DNA of 38,297 nucleotides, from the sequence record NC_002730.1, one strand, 5' to 3'. This DNA is from Enterobacteria phage HK620. Position numbers and translations under genes: made by a program. Below are positions 2,794-9,803 of the stretch, piece by piece. How positions within the stretch are numbered: position 1 is the stretch's first letter; every line of letters starts with the position of its first letter. The notes beneath the pieces were generated by a model. It worked only from the letters and a program-made list of their open reading frames with translations, did no database searches and was not told the origin of the DNA.

Positions 2794-3510
2794 TCACTCT
2801 CCTTTGATGCGAATGCCAGCGGCGCGGATTGCAGCGATGACTTCAGAAACTTTGTATGCCATTACCGTTTGGTAATCATCGTGAAAATCTGTTCGATGAA
2901 GCATGCTGCTACGTTCTGGGAGCAGTATTTCCCGATCCTCCAGTTCTGCAATGCGCTTCTCTGCGGCTTCCAGCTTCTCGCGCATATCGTCAACGTACTC
3001 GACCAGAGAACCGCCAGCAGGAATTTCGCACTCCTCGACCAGTTGGAAGTAGATATCAGCTGCGGCCCGTGTGTTGCTATGCCTAGCGTCGCCCATCTCA
3101 CCTTCACGAAGAGCATCGCGTTCGGCGGTAAGATTGGCTATTTTGCTGTCTTTGCCTTCCAGCTCAACGCGCAGCCTCCCTACCGTTAGCGCAATTTCCT
3201 CGTTCTCCTGGTCGCGGCGTTTGATGTATTGCTGTTTTCTTTCCAGCTCATCCAGCAGCGCCAAGACGGTAGCAGGATTGGCTGCGGCGATGAATTCAGC
3301 ATTGGCCTGCTGTTCCATTTGGAAATCTTCATCGAAACCGCTTTCTGGGTGCGCTCCTTCAATTCTGCAAATGGGAAGATATCCAACAACTTCACGATGA
3401 ATTAGCGCATCATCAGCATCAAATCTCTCCTCTCCATATTCGAGCGACCACACACCACTCGTTGCTTTCTCTGCCTTTTCACGCAGTGCCTGATAGTCAA
3501 TCTTGCTCAC
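2794..3510 (-). CDS. Ead/Ea22-like family protein
   Basis: 238-aa ORF; N-terminus [22 protein letters not shown] and coiled-coil middle typical of Ea22-like proteins. Confidence 0.7.
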   Translation of the reverse strand: MSKIDYQALREKAEKATSGVWSLEYGEERFDADDALIHREVVGYLPICRIEGAHPESGFDEDFQMEQQANAEFIAAANPATVLALLDELERKQQYIKRRDQENEEIALTVGRLRVELEGKDSKIANLTAERDALREGEMGDARHSNTRAAADIYFQLVEECEIPAGGSLVEYVDDMREKLEAAEKRIAELEDREILLPERSSMLHRTDFHDDYQTVMAYKVSEVIAAIRAAGIRIKGE

Positions 3511-4007
3511 TGGCTGCCTCCTTTGCGAAGCTGGTCGGCGAACAAACGTACACTAGACGCTTCACTGCGTAGAAACTTAACGGCATAATCAAAACCACCT
3601 CGTTCTGCGTCGTCTGCTACGTTGTCGAGGTTATCTGCGTACATCTCTACCCCCTGCGCCCGTACTTCAGCCAGGAAAGCGTCGGTAGTTGGGGTTTCAG
3701 TAACATCATCTTCCCATTCGCTAAACTCCTCACGACAAAAGTCATTAAATTCCTTCTCAGATTGCTTAAGCGAGGTATTTTCAGCAGCCATCTTCGCGCA
3801 TTTAGCCTCAAGGTTATCAATCGTGATTCCAGCAGAACGACACTCCCGCAACGCCGTTTCCAGTTTTGATTCAAGTTCACCGAACTTACGCACCAGATAT
3901 TCAGCGTTTGTTTCGTTAACCTTTAAATCTCGTGGGAAGCATTTACCTTTCAGAAAACCATCCATCTCAATTAGTGACATTTGTTTCATTTCTTCCCACT
4001 CCGCCAC
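3507..4007 (-). CDS. hypothetical acidic coiled-coil protein
   Basis: 166-aa ORF, overlapping start/stop with neighbours, same operon. Confidence 0.6.
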
Positions 4008-4167
4008 ATAGCATTCAGATATTTGTTTTGATTCACTGATGGAAAAGAATTTCTCTTAAGCAATTCTTCTCTCGATGGCATTGGCTTTACGCGTTGGCGA
4101 ATAATCATTTCTGCCGGAAGAATGCCGGGATTGTATGCAAGTCCTCTCATGGTAAATTCCTCAGTCA
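3986..4167 (-). CDS. hypothetical small protein, translationally coupled to the upstream gene
   Basis: Internal ATG ([15 protein letters not shown]...) overlaps the upstream stop in an ATGA arrangement. Confidence 0.45.
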
Positions 4168-4457
4168 TTACTGATAGCGCCATAGCGTGAGTGGTAATTA
4201 CGCAGGCGCGGGTCGATATATTCAGGGAAGTGGGTATATGTGGCTTTGCGGAATGGTCGGATTGATGTCTGGTAAATTCGCTCGCGTTCTTCTTTCTCTG
4301 CAAGCCATATACAATGGCGAAATTCCTTTTCCTCTTTCGTTTCCTGCGGTAGCGACATTATCCGATCGTAGTTTTTTCTGAATTTATCCAGCACCTCCGA
4401 TACGGAATTGCCGGAACAGCGGAGTGGGTCATCCGCACCATACAGAGGCGCTGGCAT
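4161..4457 (-). CDS. hypothetical protein
   Basis: 98-aa ORF in the early-left operon. Confidence 0.5.
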
Positions 4458-4480
4458 AATGGGAGCCTTATTTTCAGTAA

Positions 4481-5068
4481 TCAGAAAGGAGGGTAATCGT
4501 TCTGGCTGTAACCATAATCATCTGCATGATTCTGGCTTACGTTTTTAGAGCGATTGTCTTTATCTTTGAGGCTGGCAACCATGTTGGCGATAGTTTCTGG
4601 TTGCTTGCCTACCGCCTTTTCTTTAAGGGTTTGACCTGTTTGTGCAATAAACGGGATGCGTATTTCCATCTGGTAGCTGTCTGCGCCAGTCTTTTTGTTT
4701 GTGGTTAATACTTTCTGGAGCACTAACCCGATTTTCTTTCCATGAAATTCAGGAGCAACAAATTTACTGGCGGAAACCATATGTTGCGTTAATTGTCCAA
4801 TCCCGGCACACCCCATCATGGCGTGGACGACATTTGCGCCAAATTTATTTTCCGTTCCGTCATTTTTCTGAACACAAACGCTAAGATATTGGATTTTACG
4901 TCCGTCGTCGGATTCGCCAGAAAACTCAATAAATTTGGCTCCTTTTTCTGATTGCTTTAGTTCTGCTTCAGTAATGGTAATGATATGAGCGCCAGTTTCG
5001 TTAATAAAACCACCTTGCCCTGCGGTCAGTGCTGCTTCTTCGTTATAAGTAAAAATCACGTTGCTCAT
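4481..5068 (-). CDS. DUF669-family protein, likely ssDNA-binding partner of Sak4
   Basis: 195-aa ORF immediately downstream of, and overlapping, the Sak4-like gene. Confidence 0.6.
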   Translation of the reverse strand: MSNVIFTYNEEAALTAGQGGFINETGAHIITITEAELKQSEKGAKFIEFSGESDDGRKIQYLSVCVQKNDGTENKFGANVVHAMMGCAGIGQLTQHMVSASKFVAPEFHGKKIGLVLQKVLTTNKKTGADSYQMEIRIPFIAQTGQTLKEKAVGKQPETIANMVASLKDKDNRSKNVSQNHADDYGYSQNDYPPF

Positions 5069-5745
5069 GCGGCGTTTTCCTTAATTTGATGAACATTATT
5101 GATGCCGTAGTAATCACAAACAGTGGCATCGACGAAAGAGAGATCGTTATCAATCTCATTGGAGTCAAACATTCCCATTGGGGATTTAACAGTGTCTGCA
5201 CCGTTGTTTTTTGTGGTGAAAAAGAACTGGTCATCACGGGTAAGGGTGCGAAGAACTATAGTAAACATGCCTTCGACAGTGATTTTCTCGTCCAGCATTT
5301 TGCCGATAGTTTTCATTTTCACGCGCCCCATAGGGGTTTCTTCGGTGTGTGCAAGAAAATAGACTCTCAGGTCATCAGGTGCATCCTGTGCAGCCTTAAT
5401 CACCTCCCATGCGTGGCGGCCTATCTCAGTAAATTTATCAAACGATTTTTCTTCTGAGCGGCGCATAAACTCATTGCTCATCACATACTGGAAGTCATCA
5501 ACAATAACGATTCTTTTCCCGTATTCGTGAGCACGCTTAATTACGGCAACTATTACGTCCCATTTGTCAGTGGTAACTACGGTTCCTTTTTTTGCTCTGG
5601 CATCCCATGCCAGCCATTCTTTTGATTTAAAAGGTAGCGGCTTGCCTATTGGTTTTATAAGTATTGCTTCCTCTGGATTGATATTTCTCATGCTGGTTGA
5701 TTTTCCGGTGCCAGATTCACCGAGTATTAATGTCGCAGTTCCCAT
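5065..5745 (-). CDS. Sak4-like RecA-family recombination ATPase (AAA_24)
   Basis: 226-aa ORF with Walker A ILGESGTGKST near the N-terminus; sits where lambdoid phages carry recombination genes. Confidence 0.8.
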   Translation of the reverse strand: MGTATLILGESGTGKSTSMRNINPEEAILIKPIGKPLPFKSKEWLAWDARAKKGTVVTTDKWDVIVAVIKRAHEYGKRIVIVDDFQYVMSNEFMRRSEEKSFDKFTEIGRHAWEVIKAAQDAPDDLRVYFLAHTEETPMGRVKMKTIGKMLDEKITVEGMFTIVLRTLTRDDQFFFTTKNNGADTVKSPMGMFDSNEIDNDLSFVDATVCDYYGINNVHQIKENAA

Positions 5746-6052: not shown

Positions 6053-6185
6053 TTTTGGGAACTCCTGGCTGATTAAGTACGTCGATGAGTCGTTTCCATC
6101 CGTCACGTAATTTACGGGTGATTCGTTCAAGTAAAGATTCGGAAGGGCAGCCAGCAACAGGCCACCCTGCAATGGCATATTGCAT
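6045..6185 (-). CDS. cIII: CIII, FtsH protease inhibitor
   Basis: MQYAIAGWPVAGCPSESLLERITRKLRDGWKRLIDVLNQPGVPKNG is near-identical to lambda CIII as I recall it. Confidence 0.75.
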   Translation of the reverse strand: MQYAIAGWPVAGCPSESLLERITRKLRDGWKRLIDVLNQPGVPKNG

Positions 6186-6334
6186 GGTGTGCTCCTTATT
6201 TATACATAACGGAAAACGCCTCTCGTGAAGCGTTATTGGTATGCATATAAAAAGGCCCTCACATTGGAGGGCAAAGAAGATTTCCAATAATCAGAACAAG
6301 TCGGCTCCTGTTTAGTTACGAGCGACATTGCTCC

Positions 6335-6482: not shown

Positions 6483-6977
6483 ATGGATGTGTTATCTGGT
6501 ATAACTGCCGCGAAACAGGCTTATGATCTGCTGAAGACAATAAAAGAAACCAGAGACGATGCTGTTATCGCTAAAGCTATTGGTGATCTACACCAAAGAA
6601 TAACTGACTTACAGATGCTTAATGCGGAGCTCTCTGGCCTTTATCAGGCCGAGAAGGAGATCGCAATGAAGCTTCGAGATGAAAATAGAAAAATCAAGAT
6701 GTTTGTTGTGCAAGCTGAGAATTATGAACTTCATACAACTGAAGGTGGTTCTGTCGTGTATCGACCTAAGAGTCATTCCGATCATTCTATTCAGCAGCAT
6801 AACCTTTGTGCACATTGCTTCGGCGAACATAAAATATCGATACTTCAACCAAGCACGGTTACTATAAAATCTAATGGATTCTTTGTGCATTCATGTCCTC
6901 GCTGTAAGAATGAATACCGGATGTATAGAGCGCCAGACCCTAAGCCTGTATATGTACCGCCGCTGACAAATTATTAA
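6483..6977 (+). CDS. hypothetical protein: N-terminal coiled coil, C-terminal zinc ribbon (CAHC...CPRC); oriented against the leftward operon
   Basis: 164-aa ORF with ATG start; lower GC than neighbours; preceded by palindromes and direct repeats. Confidence 0.6.
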   Translation: MDVLSGITAAKQAYDLLKTIKETRDDAVIAKAIGDLHQRITDLQMLNAELSGLYQAEKEIAMKLRDENRKIKMFVVQAENYELHTTEGGSVVYRPKSHSDHSIQQHNLCAHCFGEHKISILQPSTVTIKSNGFFVHSCPRCKNEYRMYRAPDPKPVYVPPLTNY

Positions 6978-7007: not shown

Positions 7008-7370
7008 TTACTTTGTCAGGGGGATATCTCCTTCAGTTTTGACCATTCGCCTTAATACTTTCCTTAAGTCGATGTAAAGTTGAAGGTCTCCATTTGCTGC
7101 GGCATCAGCCATTTTTTGCCTGACAAGCAGTAATGTTTCATACGGCTCAATAAGAATATCGTCATGAGTAATTAGGTGAAGCGTTGCCGCATCAACTATT
7201 CCTAGAGCTGCGCCAAGTATCAAAAATTCCCTGCTATTTTTGTCGCATGAGGAGATAAGCGTATTTAGCGCATACCTAATATTCTTTATAGCTGTTGTTA
7301 ATGCTGCAATTTCTTCTATGGCGTCTTCTCCAATGAGCTTTTTAAGCTCATATTTTTCTTCCTGACCCAT
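7008..7370 (-). CDS. hypothetical protein, translationally coupled to N
   Basis: ATG at 7370 with GAGG ribosome-binding site overlapping the N stop (gaggTAAttATG); 120 aa. Confidence 0.55.
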   Translation of the reverse strand: MGQEEKYELKKLIGEDAIEEIAALTTAIKNIRYALNTLISSCDKNSREFLILGAALGIVDAATLHLITHDDILIEPYETLLLVRQKMADAAANGDLQLYIDLRKVLRRMVKTEGDIPLTK

Positions 7371-7372
7371 AA

Positions 7373-7645
7373 TTACCTCGCCGTCAGTTGTTTTGATTTC
7401 CGGTAGCCTGCCGCGTAAATGGCTACGTTTGGCAGGCAAATACTTCCACTGCATTCTTCTGCCTTCTTGCAGCGAATGCTTCCGAGTGATGCTGCTTTAT
7501 CTGCTCTGACGCAACCAGAGAGCTTTAGCGCAATTTTTCGCGCCAGTCGCTGCTCTTGCATTGCCTGTTCACGTTGAGCCTGTCTGCGTGCTCTGCGGCG
7601 ATTTCTGGCGTTATCGTCAGCCAGATATGTAATGACTACTGTCAT
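7373..7645 (-). CDS. N: N-like transcription antiterminator with N-terminal arginine-rich motif
   Basis: 90-aa ORF with ARM (DNARNRRRARRQAQREQ); first gene after pL/nutL; GGAGG ribosome-binding site. Confidence 0.75.
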   Translation of the reverse strand: MTVVITYLADDNARNRRRARRQAQREQAMQEQRLARKIALKLSGCVRADKAASLGSIRCKKAEECSGSICLPNVAIYAAGYRKSKQLTAR

Positions 7646-7752
7646 GTTGACCTCCGATGATTGACTTTGGCGGTGACGCGCCGGGTGCTTATCTTCAGGT
7701 TGCCGTCGTGCAGCTGCACTTCACGTCACCCCAAAGCCAACTACTCTTTGGT

Positions 7753-7794
7753 TCCCGCATTTCGGCGGGACAATCCCATCAATGTTAAAGAGCC
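7753..7794 (-). promoter_or_regulatory. nutL: boxA-like GCTCTTTAAC plus boxB hairpin
   Basis: boxB is identical to the hairpin downstream of cro (UCCCGCCGAAAUGCGGGA). Confidence 0.55.
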
Positions 7795-7839
7795 TGCCAA
7801 TCTGTTCCGTTTGGCTTCCAGCGTCCTGCTGATGGCTAA

Positions 7840-7880
7840 AGAATACTGTAGGTATTTTATTGTGTAAATACCCAAGGTAT
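7840..7880 (-). promoter_or_regulatory. pL promoter (TTTACA-N17-TATTCT on minus strand) with two palindromic operators ATACTGTAGGTAT (7843-7855) and ATACCCAAGGTAT (7868-7880)
   Basis: 13-bp palindromes of type ATAC-N5-GTAT, 25 bp apart, overlapping -10 and -35; same family as the oR sites. Confidence 0.55.
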
Positions 7881-8012
7881 TTATTTTTGATGAAATAATG
7901 ATAAACAAATGAATACAAAGGATATTTATTTTTTCGCTGTCTGCTTGTTCAGTGATTTTTATGCGGGATATGTGAAGTGGATCCCGATAGCTATTGCTGC
8001 CGGGATTATGGG

Positions 8013-8381
8013 TTAGTCAGCGAAGGTTAAGACGAGAATTACCTTAATGATGTCTGCTACAACAGACACGGCCATAGATAAACCAAAGACGATCCAAGCC
8101 ACAGTGATGTCTTCACTACCATCGTATAGAGTTCCGTAATCACTGGTGTAAGGCGTAAATGTCGCGCCTTGATACAATAGGTATAAGCTTGATCCATAGA
8201 GGATAAATGCAGATATCCCTTGTATTGCTATGATCACAAGAATCATGAAACGAGCTGATCTATGCGCCCAAGCCTGGCTTATTTTTTCTGATAGAGATTT
8301 CGCAATAAAAGCATGCGCTAAGACGTAAATTGTCGAGATTGCCAACATCCCAAAAAAGCTTGCTATAGCGGTTCCAACCAT
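8013..8381 (-). CDS. small integral membrane protein (about three predicted TM helices) encoded immediately downstream of cI
   Basis: 122 aa from ATG at 8381 with AAGGGG ribosome-binding site; begins 18 nt after the cI stop on the same strand; hydrophobic segments throughout. Confidence 0.6.
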   Translation of the reverse strand: MVGTAIASFFGMLAISTIYVLAHAFIAKSLSEKISQAWAHRSARFMILVIIAIQGISAFILYGSSLYLLYQGATFTPYTSDYGTLYDGSEDITVAWIVFGLSMAVSVVADIIKVILVLTFAD

Positions 8382-8398
8382 AATCGCCCCTTGCGTGA

Positions 8399-9115
8399 TC
8401 AAACCAGCCTTAGTTTTGTCTCAATTGCAACGCCTATAATCTTGCAGTTTCCATTGATTGGCACGAGAGGCCATGCAGGATTAAGTCCCTTGAGGTATTT
8501 ATTTCCGCCGTCGATTATCAGCTTCTTGAATGTTGCTTCGTTAGAGTCAGAAAGTTTTGCTATGACCAAGCTGCCGTTGATCGCCTCCCTTCCGGTATCG
8601 AAAAGAACGAATGTTCCCTCTGGAATGCTTAACCCAACCGGTGCCGTCATTGAATCACCTTCCACTTTAAGCCAGAACGCATTACCTTGAATATGCGCGT
8701 CAGACTCAAGCCAAACATCTATGTCTTTAATGGTGTATGGTTCGCATGCTTCACACCACGAGCCAGCCTGGATACTGCTTAACACCGGATACCTCTTTCC
8801 TGCTCTGTATTCCCCTGCATACCTTACGTTGGCATCGCTCTTAAGGCTTTCTGCCTGTTCTGCAACCTTGGCAGCAATTGACTGGCTAAAATCAGCAATA
8901 GAGACTTGCAACAATCGTGTAAAACCAGATGCAACCTCAACGTTTAGCGCGTTTCTGCCATTAAGATAATGCCCTACCGCTCCTTGGGTGATACCCAGTT
9001 CATCAGCGATTGAGTATTGGGTTATTCCCAATTCTTTCTTTTTTGACTCATACAAAGCCTTAAGCCGCTTAGCGTCTTCGAGCTGTTCTGTCGTCAGTGA
9101 TTTTTTATTTTCCAT
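8399..9115 (-). CDS. cI: CI repressor (lambda-CI-like N-terminal HTH plus C-terminal S24 autopeptidase domain)
   Basis: 238 aa; MENKKSLTTEQLEDAKRLKALYESKKKELG... parallels lambda CI; EGDSMT serine motif and FKKLI lysine motif present. Confidence 0.92.
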   Translation of the reverse strand: MENKKSLTTEQLEDAKRLKALYESKKKELGITQYSIADELGITQGAVGHYLNGRNALNVEVASGFTRLLQVSIADFSQSIAAKVAEQAESLKSDANVRYAGEYRAGKRYPVLSSIQAGSWCEACEPYTIKDIDVWLESDAHIQGNAFWLKVEGDSMTAPVGLSIPEGTFVLFDTGREAINGSLVIAKLSDSNEATFKKLIIDGGNKYLKGLNPAWPLVPINGNCKIIGVAIETKLRLV

Positions 9116-9151
9116 AGCTTAATTCTAATAGCTAAGGTACTTAAACTAAAA

Positions 9152-9192
9152 ATACCCTGAGTATTGATTGCTTTGAATACCTGTAGTATTCT
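9152..9192 (+). promoter_or_regulatory. oR/pR: palindromic operators ATACCCTGAGTAT (9152-9164) and ATACCTGTAGTAT (9177-9189); candidate pR TTGATT-N17-TATTCT; divergent pRM implied
   Basis: Same palindrome family and 25-bp spacing as at pL; sits between divergent cI and cro. Confidence 0.55.
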
Positions 9193-9524: not shown

Positions 9525-9803
9525 ATGCAACTTACAAGTACTCGCAAGAAAGCGAATGCAATTACAAGCAACATCCTAAATCGAATTGCTGTACGTGGTC
9601 AGCGAAAGGTTGCTGATGCATTAGGGATCAATGAATCGCAAATTTCGCGATGGAAAGACAGCTTTATCCCAAAGATGGCCATGCTTCTGGCTGTGCTGGA
9701 GTGGGGTGTTGAAGACGAGGAGTTGGCGGAACTGGCTAAGAAAGTAGCCAGAATGCTGACAAAAGAAAAAGCCCCGAAGAACGGCGAATTCTTCGAGGCC
9801 TAA
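9525..9803 (+). CDS. cII: CII transcriptional activator
   Basis: 92 aa; ...[28 protein letters not shown]... parallels lambda CII; ribosome-binding site AAGGAAA. Confidence 0.85.

Follow-up and report, generated by a model that had tools for sequence, protein, structure and literature searches.

HkaS of phage HK620: a predicted inner-membrane protein encoded behind the repressor gene as a candidate for prophage-expressed exclusion

Introduction

Genes carried behind prophage repressors are expressed throughout lysogeny and, in the cases studied, such as rexAB and bstA, determine which other phages can attack the host. In phage lambda, rexA and rexB occupy the slot between the repressor gene cI and the left operator OL, and RexB is a protein with four transmembrane helices. 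HK97 gp15 and T4 Imm are single small inner-membrane proteins that block DNA entry, and BstA carries a KilA-N domain. P22 SieA is a single inner-membrane exclusion protein (Leavitt et al. 2024, PMC10883804), and BstA of Salmonella phage BTP1 is a defence protein that is encoded directly downstream of cI and acts at phage DNA replication sites (PMC8585504). The region between cI and N was described in the latter study as a mosaic hotspot with rexAB and bstA (Owen et al. 2021, PMC8585504). Here, we analyse hkaS, the gene located directly behind cI on the minus strand of Enterobacteria phage HK620 (8013..8381 of NC_002730.1, 38,297 nucleotides (nt), the whole of which is called the window below).

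HK620 is a well-used model for P22-like infection, and its HkaS protein is a compact single-gene orphan found in E. coli, Salmonella, Enterobacter, Hafnia, and Stx2c-converting phages. It stands alone between cI and OL, where lambda has rexA-rexB. Taken together, the computational data presented here make hkaS a reasonable candidate for an exclusion gene. It is an annotated hypothetical gene in a known cargo hotspot, for which an exclusion role is plausible rather than surprising.

The hkaS reading frame and its conservation

The hkaS open reading frame (ORF), as read from the minus strand and the list of ORFs and translations, starts with an ATG at 8381-8379 and ends with a stop codon at 8015-8013, encoding a predicted three-helix inner-membrane protein of 122 amino acids (aa). 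A preliminary description made from the sequence had proposed a 122-aa ORF after cI that has a ribosome-binding site to itself; such a site, AAGGGG (8387..8392, minus strand), is indeed present 5 nt 5' of the ATG. The span of 8013-8402 given there belongs to a 129-aa version that opens at a TTG overlapping the cI stop codon, so that the ORF itself stands and its coordinates become 8013..8381 for the 122-aa protein. The spacer of 18 nt after the cI stop is likewise to be corrected to 17 nt (8398-8382), the TGA of cI being located at 8401-8399. The ATG start is supported by the Salmonella-type allele, which has an in-frame TAA immediately 5' of this codon, and by the Shine-Dalgarno box, since an AAGGA or AAGGGG box with a spacer of 17-20 nt is kept in every divergent hkaS allele compared. 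The ORF list holds no competing ORF longer than 32 aa on the opposite strand.

The encoded protein is 100% identical to HkaS of HK620 and HK630 (AAK28867.1 and AFH20797.1). The gene is annotated as "HkaS protein, similar to phage HK620 protein" in the HK630 record and as "hypothetical protein" in other records. It matches the PHROG 6534 profile with an E value of 1.1e-78, in which residues 1-122 are aligned on positions 1-122 of 122; this profile represents the HkaS family of HK620, HK630, mEpX2, HK140, and Stx2c phages, whose function is unknown. The gene has thus already been annotated without a function and is no newly discovered one. Literature searches with the names HkaS, mEpX2, and HK630/HK140, the accessions, and HK620 exclusion found no paper on the protein, and no expression data for hkaS in lysogens were found in the literature.

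Eight distinct homologues of HkaS with identities of 52-96% share a length of exactly 122 aa and are free of insertions and deletions (indels); their sources are E. coli, Salmonella, Enterobacter, Hafnia, Buttiauxella, and metagenomes. Compared to a Hafnia-type allele, hkaS shows a synonymous divergence (dS) of 0.66 and a nonsynonymous divergence (dN) of 0.097, giving a dN/dS ratio of 0.15. The gene is present in 146 of 5426 complete E. coli genomes (2.7%), each match being at least 80% covered, and it is an annotated coding sequence (CDS) in 20 of the 20 E. coli matches listed. Judged from the eight indel-free homologues, the dN/dS ratio, the occurrence in 146 E. coli genomes, and a confident AlphaFold2 model (see below), hkaS is a genuine protein-coding gene rather than a chance ORF. 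A non-coding ORF or one disrupted in relatives, which the preliminary description had named as a finding that would speak against its reading, is not what the comparison revealed; the ratio is low, the homologues have a uniform length, and frameshifted copies are rare.

Position of hkaS in the immunity operon

This operon begins with cI (8399..9115, minus strand) as its first cistron, encoding a 238-aa repressor with HTH_3 and Peptidase_S24 domains according to Pfam, PHROG 4, and the annotation of HK630 and mEpX2. As would be typical of immunity-operon cargo, hkaS is on the cI strand, lies in the slot between cI and OL3, and has its own ribosome-binding site, and the promoter and terminator scans found no promoter-like or terminator-like site between the two genes. 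A stem-loop, AUCCCGG.AGC....GCU.UCGGGAU (7981..8006, minus strand; RNA fold -13.7 kcal/mol, z -2.5), is located 6 nt 3' of the hkaS stop. Three divergent alleles have a hairpin of differing sequence at the matching position, with z values of -4.5, -3.1, and -1.7. All of these hairpins are without a U tract and none is called by the terminator scan; we hypothesise that the stem-loop serves as the 3' end or a stabiliser of the immunity transcript. From the 17-nt spacer, the lack of a promoter-like site between the genes, and the hairpin that follows the stop in four divergent alleles, we infer that cI and hkaS are co-transcribed and hence that HkaS is made in lysogens. No Rfam family was found in or beside hkaS, and the small RNA svsR, which lies at the cI 3' end of another prophage, was considered and is unrelated to hkaS.

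The operators and promoters around the two genes are arranged as follows. An OL3-like operator, AATACAAAGGATATT (7912..7926), belongs to repeat family D1, which is common to the sites of the right operator OR, and the distance from the hkaS stop to OL3 is 86 nt. OL1 and OL2 (7842-7858 and 7866-7882; repeat families D1, I1, I3, and I4) overlap PL, for which the promoter scan gave a PL-like promoter, TTTACA-17-TATTCT (7868..7840, minus strand), overlapping the operators. The OR operators (9151-9165 and 9176-9190) consist of inverted and direct repeat families common to OL. A putative PRM (9122..9150, minus strand) was read by eye and comprises a -35 box TTTAGT (9150-9145), a 17-nt spacer, and a -10 box TAGAAT (9127-9122). 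Its -35 box, which is too weak for the consensus promoter scan, abuts the operator at 9151-9165, and its -10 box ends 6 nt before the ATG of cI; this PRM assignment, made by analogy with PRM of lambda, and a leaderless cI mRNA as in lambda are putative. A pattern search located TTGC-N6-TTGC in the 5' part of cII (9558..9571, minus strand), a putative cII-binding site of PRE. By chance, 3.8 occurrences of the pattern would be expected in the window, where three are found; only the position of this one is therefore meaningful, and the HK630 record annotates the same cII-binding site. The N gene (Pfam, PHROG) lies at 7645..7373 on the minus strand.

The ORF list holds no second gene between cI and OL3 besides hkaS. 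A hydrophobic 35-aa ORF on the plus strand (7909-8016), which starts at OL3, overlaps the hkaS stop by 4 nt, and is an annotated gene in phage HF4s, was considered as a hidden partner and rejected. It is missing in the Salmonella-type allele and in the allele of locus L007 and is frameshifted in one Stx2c phage; being absent or frameshifted in divergent alleles, it is probably spurious. In addition, PL, the operators, and the nutL boxA site lie within a 65-aa ORF on the minus strand (7721-7918), which HK630 annotates as "hypothetical protein" and which is most likely no gene.

The slot between cI and OL as a cargo site

The preliminary description had stated that this position holds rexA and rexB in lambda. 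This is correct, and the pair is also found behind a close relative of the HK620 repressor. In locus L018 of Siccibacter colletis (3824-5113), a cI that is 76% identical is followed by rexA (Pfam RexA, E 1e-96) and then by a lambda-type rexB of 144 aa, indicating that related repressors can be followed by either rexAB or hkaS as cargo. Of 80 more distant repressor relatives from other species, with identities of 40-76%, only one has hkaS (L042, Buttiauxella); the remainder have varied cargo in the slot, including the rexA-rexB pair of L018, or none. At about 3600-4900 of the respective loci, the cargo consists of a DUF1275 membrane protein in L020, an NYN-domain protein in L022, DUF6932 in L030, a Tlde1-domain protein in L043, and a HipA_C-like protein in L063. 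Lipoprotein-like ORFs and tiny membrane ORFs are also found, and the cargo ORFs of L021, L025, L028, and L068 match no Pfam family. Behind the P22 repressor, the slot is empty. The varied contents behind related repressors thus identify the slot as a cargo hotspot, in agreement with the previous report (PMC8585504).

The proposed absence of a RexA partner was borne out as well; hkaS is the sole gene between cI and OL3, and tblastn searches of the window (E up to 1) with lambda RexA and RexB, as well as P22 SieA, SieB, and GtrA, returned no homologue. Apart from its repressor, the phage is without the classical prophage exclusion systems of P22 and lambda.

Linkage of hkaS to the repressor

The immunity region of HK620 is 99-100% identical to those of HK630, mEpX2, HZ41, phi296/phi367, HK140, and Stx2c-converting phages. 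Nine divergent loci were obtained by looking up the protein; in each of them, as in those annotated records of phages and E. coli that were examined, hkaS lies directly behind an S24 repressor gene and ahead of N. This cI and hkaS are each present in 146 complete E. coli genomes. The proportions of synonymous differences in cI and hkaS are nearly equal in three pairs (0.47/0.44, 0.81/0.80, and 0.75/0.79), showing that the pair has been inherited as one unit as far back as synonymous sites record. Diversifying selection on hkaS was considered because its nonsynonymous divergence is 4-5 times that of cI, yet its dN/dS of ~0.15-0.2 does not support it. Together with a synonymous divergence equal to that of cI, this ratio points to weaker constraint on hkaS, though still with clear purifying selection, and not to cassette swapping or overall positive selection.

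In the uncultured Buttiauxella locus L042 (~2990-4043), hkaS lies behind a repressor whose S24 C-terminal domain is ~90% identical and whose helix-turn-helix domain is unrelated. This arrangement implies a recombination joint inside cI and the sharing of hkaS by heteroimmune phages, and the unrelated DNA-binding domain excludes a tie of hkaS to immunity specificity, the linkage being a physical one. It is with the C-terminal half of the repressor that hkaS has long been inherited. The cI-hkaS module is carried by phages of at least four virion types, namely P22-like, lambda-like, HK97-like, and a prophage whose head genes are unrelated to these (a DUF1073 portal-type protein, DUF2213, and DUF2184), and also by Stx2c-converting phages. 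Its spread across differing virion types leads one to expect lysogeny-phase cargo rather than a virion-linked function.

Predicted structure of HkaS and searches for relatives

A Kyte-Doolittle scan of HkaS gives hydrophobic segments at residues ~3-27, 45-70, and 92-119. The AlphaFold2 model, built on a 13-sequence alignment, has a mean predicted local distance difference test score (pLDDT) of 92.7 and a predicted template modelling score (pTM) of 0.80, with helices at 2-29, 31-38, 41-74, and 89-121 and a small beta-hairpin in loop 2. The three hydrophobic segments and the three long helices agree with the estimate of about three transmembrane helices in the preliminary description, and HkaS is predicted to be a 122-aa integral inner-membrane protein. 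Loop 1 (28-44) is basic, with four Lys or Arg and one Glu, and contains the conserved short helix KISQAWAHR, and loop 2 (71-91) is acidic, with four Asp or Glu and no Lys or Arg, and rich in Tyr and Gly. The positive-inside rule would place loop 2 and the N-terminus in the periplasm, and loop 1 and the C-terminus in the cytoplasm, which corresponds to a predicted N-out/C-in topology.

The strongly conserved residues include K33, Q36, W38, H40, R44, F45, Q54, Y67, L69, Y70, T74, G88, W96, F99, D110, K113, and most of the C-terminal ILVLTFAD, the invariant C-terminus being written as D110..K113.ILVLTFAD. The mean pairwise identity per region is fairly even (53-68%), and the distal half of the periplasmic hairpin (residues ~80-95) is most variable.

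Searches of Pfam, NCBIfam, and PADLOC-DB 2.0 at E values up to 1 assigned HkaS to no family; a weak lnt match (E 0.011) is far below the cut-off. A profile search of the PDB gave no match, and fold searches with the model returned generic helical bundles alone and no specific fold. A word-indexed search of 5.8 billion proteins yielded 12 clusters, all close to HkaS, and a profile search of 1.84 billion representatives yielded two matches, both members of the HkaS family. In pairwise hhalign comparisons, the probabilities were 0.5% for lambda RexB, 0.3% for SieA of the P22 type, 0.1% for SieB, 0.25% for HK97 gp15, 0.3% for the P22 holin gp13, and 0.2% for the colicin E1 immunity protein (ColE1 Imm), and no Pfam colicin-immunity family matched at E values up to 1. 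The remote homology searches suggested in the preliminary description thus gave no relative of assigned function, and HkaS is a sequence orphan.

Proposed function and alternatives

A defence-type role is proposed for HkaS on the basis of its position in the cI-OL slot, its membrane location, and the precedents of single inner-membrane proteins. The absence of SieA, SieB, GtrA, and RexAB from the phage and the spread of the module across virion types are further points in favour of such a role. Specifically, we tentatively consider it a prophage-expressed superinfection exclusion protein acting at the inner membrane, a reading to which we give less than an even chance. Transcripts starting at PRM in lysogens and at PRE during establishment would run through cI, the 17-nt spacer, and hkaS, for whose translation a separate Shine-Dalgarno box is present, and would finish at the hairpin before OL3. 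HkaS would then act alone at the inner membrane as a protection protein and might keep the DNA of an incoming phage from crossing the cytoplasmic membrane, as do P22 SieA, HK97 gp15, and T4 Imm. It would thereby be a positional alternative to rexAB.

Several observations weigh against this exclusion role. HkaS shows no homology to any of the exclusion or defence proteins compared, and the literature searches gave no experiment that links it to exclusion. Its conservation is spread across both loops and the C-terminus and therefore singles out no periplasmic interaction surface. The long co-divergence of hkaS and cI, to synonymous saturation, is unusual for freely exchanged defence cargo and could point to a role of HkaS in lysogeny itself. 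Moreover, hkaS of the virulently grown phage HF4s (MT833387; 1501-1875 of locus L012) has lost 1 nt from the A6 run of codons 32-34 and so meets a premature stop; this is either a homopolymer sequencing error or the mark of a viable phage without intact HkaS. Scrambled N-termini occur in three small rare clusters (P0005, P0007, and P0009). At most, these frameshifted copies indicate that the gene is dispensable for lytic growth.

The same position and membrane character may be read as those of a stand-alone abortive-infection effector, that is, a latent channel or holin-like lesion which is opened by a superinfecting phage, collapses the membrane potential, and kills the cell before progeny are formed, in the manner of RexB without its RexA sensor. 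HkaS occupies the rexB slot, rexA-rexB stand behind a closely related cI, and its size and membrane character resemble those of RexB (144 aa). The invariant polar residues inside the helices, Q54, D110, and K113, and also S106 in the 13-sequence alignment, would fit a pore or a gated interface, and class I holins have the same N-out/C-in arrangement of three helices as is predicted for HkaS. However, such an effector is unlikely in our estimation; HkaS has no homology to RexB or class I holins and has three helices and not the four of RexB, there is no sensor gene in the operon and no RexA in the genome, and a lone constitutive pore-former needs a trigger, of which the sequence offers no sign. 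We consider it very improbable that HkaS confers immunity to a membrane-active toxin, be it a pore-forming colicin or a toxin of phage or host origin, in the way of the immunity proteins of colicins E1, Ia, and A, which are small inner-membrane proteins of three or four helices. Its size and helix count are near those of the three-helix ColE1 Imm (113 aa), and both are inner-membrane proteins, but the hhalign probability and the lack of a Pfam colicin-immunity match cited above, the absence of an adjacent toxin gene, and a predicted N-out orientation opposite to that reported for E1-type immunity proteins all argue against it.

A different explanation places HkaS outside defence altogether, as a lysogeny-phase membrane protein serving the prophage or the host, for instance by modulating a host membrane protein (a transporter, a sensor kinase, or a protease such as FtsH), by making lysogeny more stable, by adjusting induction, or by lysogenic conversion to greater fitness or stress tolerance. 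The maintenance of hkaS with the cI lineage to synonymous saturation and the equal counts in E. coli genomes would fit a housekeeping role in lysogeny better than swappable defence cargo, and fixed cellular partners are what the conservation of the cytoplasmic helix KISQAWAHR and the invariance of the C-terminus suggest. RexB itself has a reported non-defence activity, the inhibition of ClpP-dependent proteolysis. On the other hand, the repressor relatives at 40-76% identity are without hkaS and carry other cargo or none, and the P22 slot is empty, which indicates that the repressor system does not need hkaS. In addition, the L042 repressor with its unrelated DNA-binding domain removes a tie to immunity specificity, and no positive sign of a specific partner was found. 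We judge a non-defence role unlikely, though slightly less so than the abortive effector. That the ORF is non-functional, being a relic in decay or spacer DNA from cI to OL that stays open by chance, is hardly credible. The frameshifted copies in HF4s, P0005, P0007, and P0009 and the uncharacterised product would allow it, but they stand against a dN/dS of 0.15, the lack of indels down to 52% identity, a kept ribosome-binding site, 146 near full-length E. coli matches with all 20 of those listed being CDS, and a confident model.

If HkaS, as an exclusion or abortive protein, does act on phages, it would represent a new family among the few membrane-level defences and would bear on phage-therapy host range and the ecology of Stx phages; if it is not anti-phage, it is still a conserved lysogeny-phase membrane protein. 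A broader claim, by which HkaS would be the first of a new family of repressor-linked membrane immunity proteins that work singly, either by exclusion with a new target at the inner membrane or by a self-contained abortive channel that senses infection in the absence of a RexA-like partner, appears improbable at present. Were it true, ~3% of sequenced E. coli would be protected, including lysogens of Stx2c phages, and the old linkage to the repressor C-terminal domain could reflect a tie to lysogeny control.

Other elements in the window

Some further elements are found on the other side of N. An ORF of 164 aa (6483-6977, plus strand), called HkaP in HK630, belongs to PHROG 1244 of unknown function; its C-terminal part bears a zinc-ribbon-like CxxC...CxxC motif. 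Running opposite to the PL operon, it comes next after N and HkaQ, fills the slot occupied by sieB in P22, lambda, and HK140, and is a second candidate for a prophage-expressed gene. HkaQ (7008-7454, minus strand) belongs to PHROG 7374, also of unknown function. As listed, its ORF has 148 aa and overlaps N at the end of that gene; in both the PHROG profile and the annotation of HK630 the protein starts at residue 29, giving a 120-aa product. A similarity of HkaQ to AbiH was sub-threshold (E 0.16) and is probably noise. The Rfam Lambda_thermo element, a cIII thermoregulator, was detected at 6140-6198 on the minus strand (88.5 bits, E 2e-21) and marks the region of the cIII translation start.

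Comparison with known systems

RexB is like HkaS in that it occupies the same cI-OL slot, is presumably transcribed from PRM and PRE, and is a small polytopic inner-membrane protein. The two differ in that RexB has 144 aa and a RexA partner, whereas HkaS has 122 aa, three predicted helices, and no adjacent rexA; the preliminary description of HkaS as much smaller than RexB is overstated, the difference being 22 residues. BstA, although also encoded behind a repressor, is unlike HkaS; the latter is a small predicted membrane protein, and no PADLOC or Pfam match relates the two. Class I holins such as lambda S and P22 gp13 have a three-helix N-out/C-in topology, and it is only this topology, as predicted, that HkaS shares with them. 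HkaS is encoded in the immunity operon and not in the lysis cassette, and it ends in a hydrophobic C-terminus, ILVLTFAD, without a charged tail. SieA and gp15, which are prophage-expressed and partner-free, resemble HkaS as single small membrane proteins, and T4 Imm is likened to it by the proposed mode of action and not by sequence comparison. The genes for SieA and gp15 are found in immI and in the tail region, respectively, each with its own promoter, whereas the gene for HkaS is placed behind the repressor.

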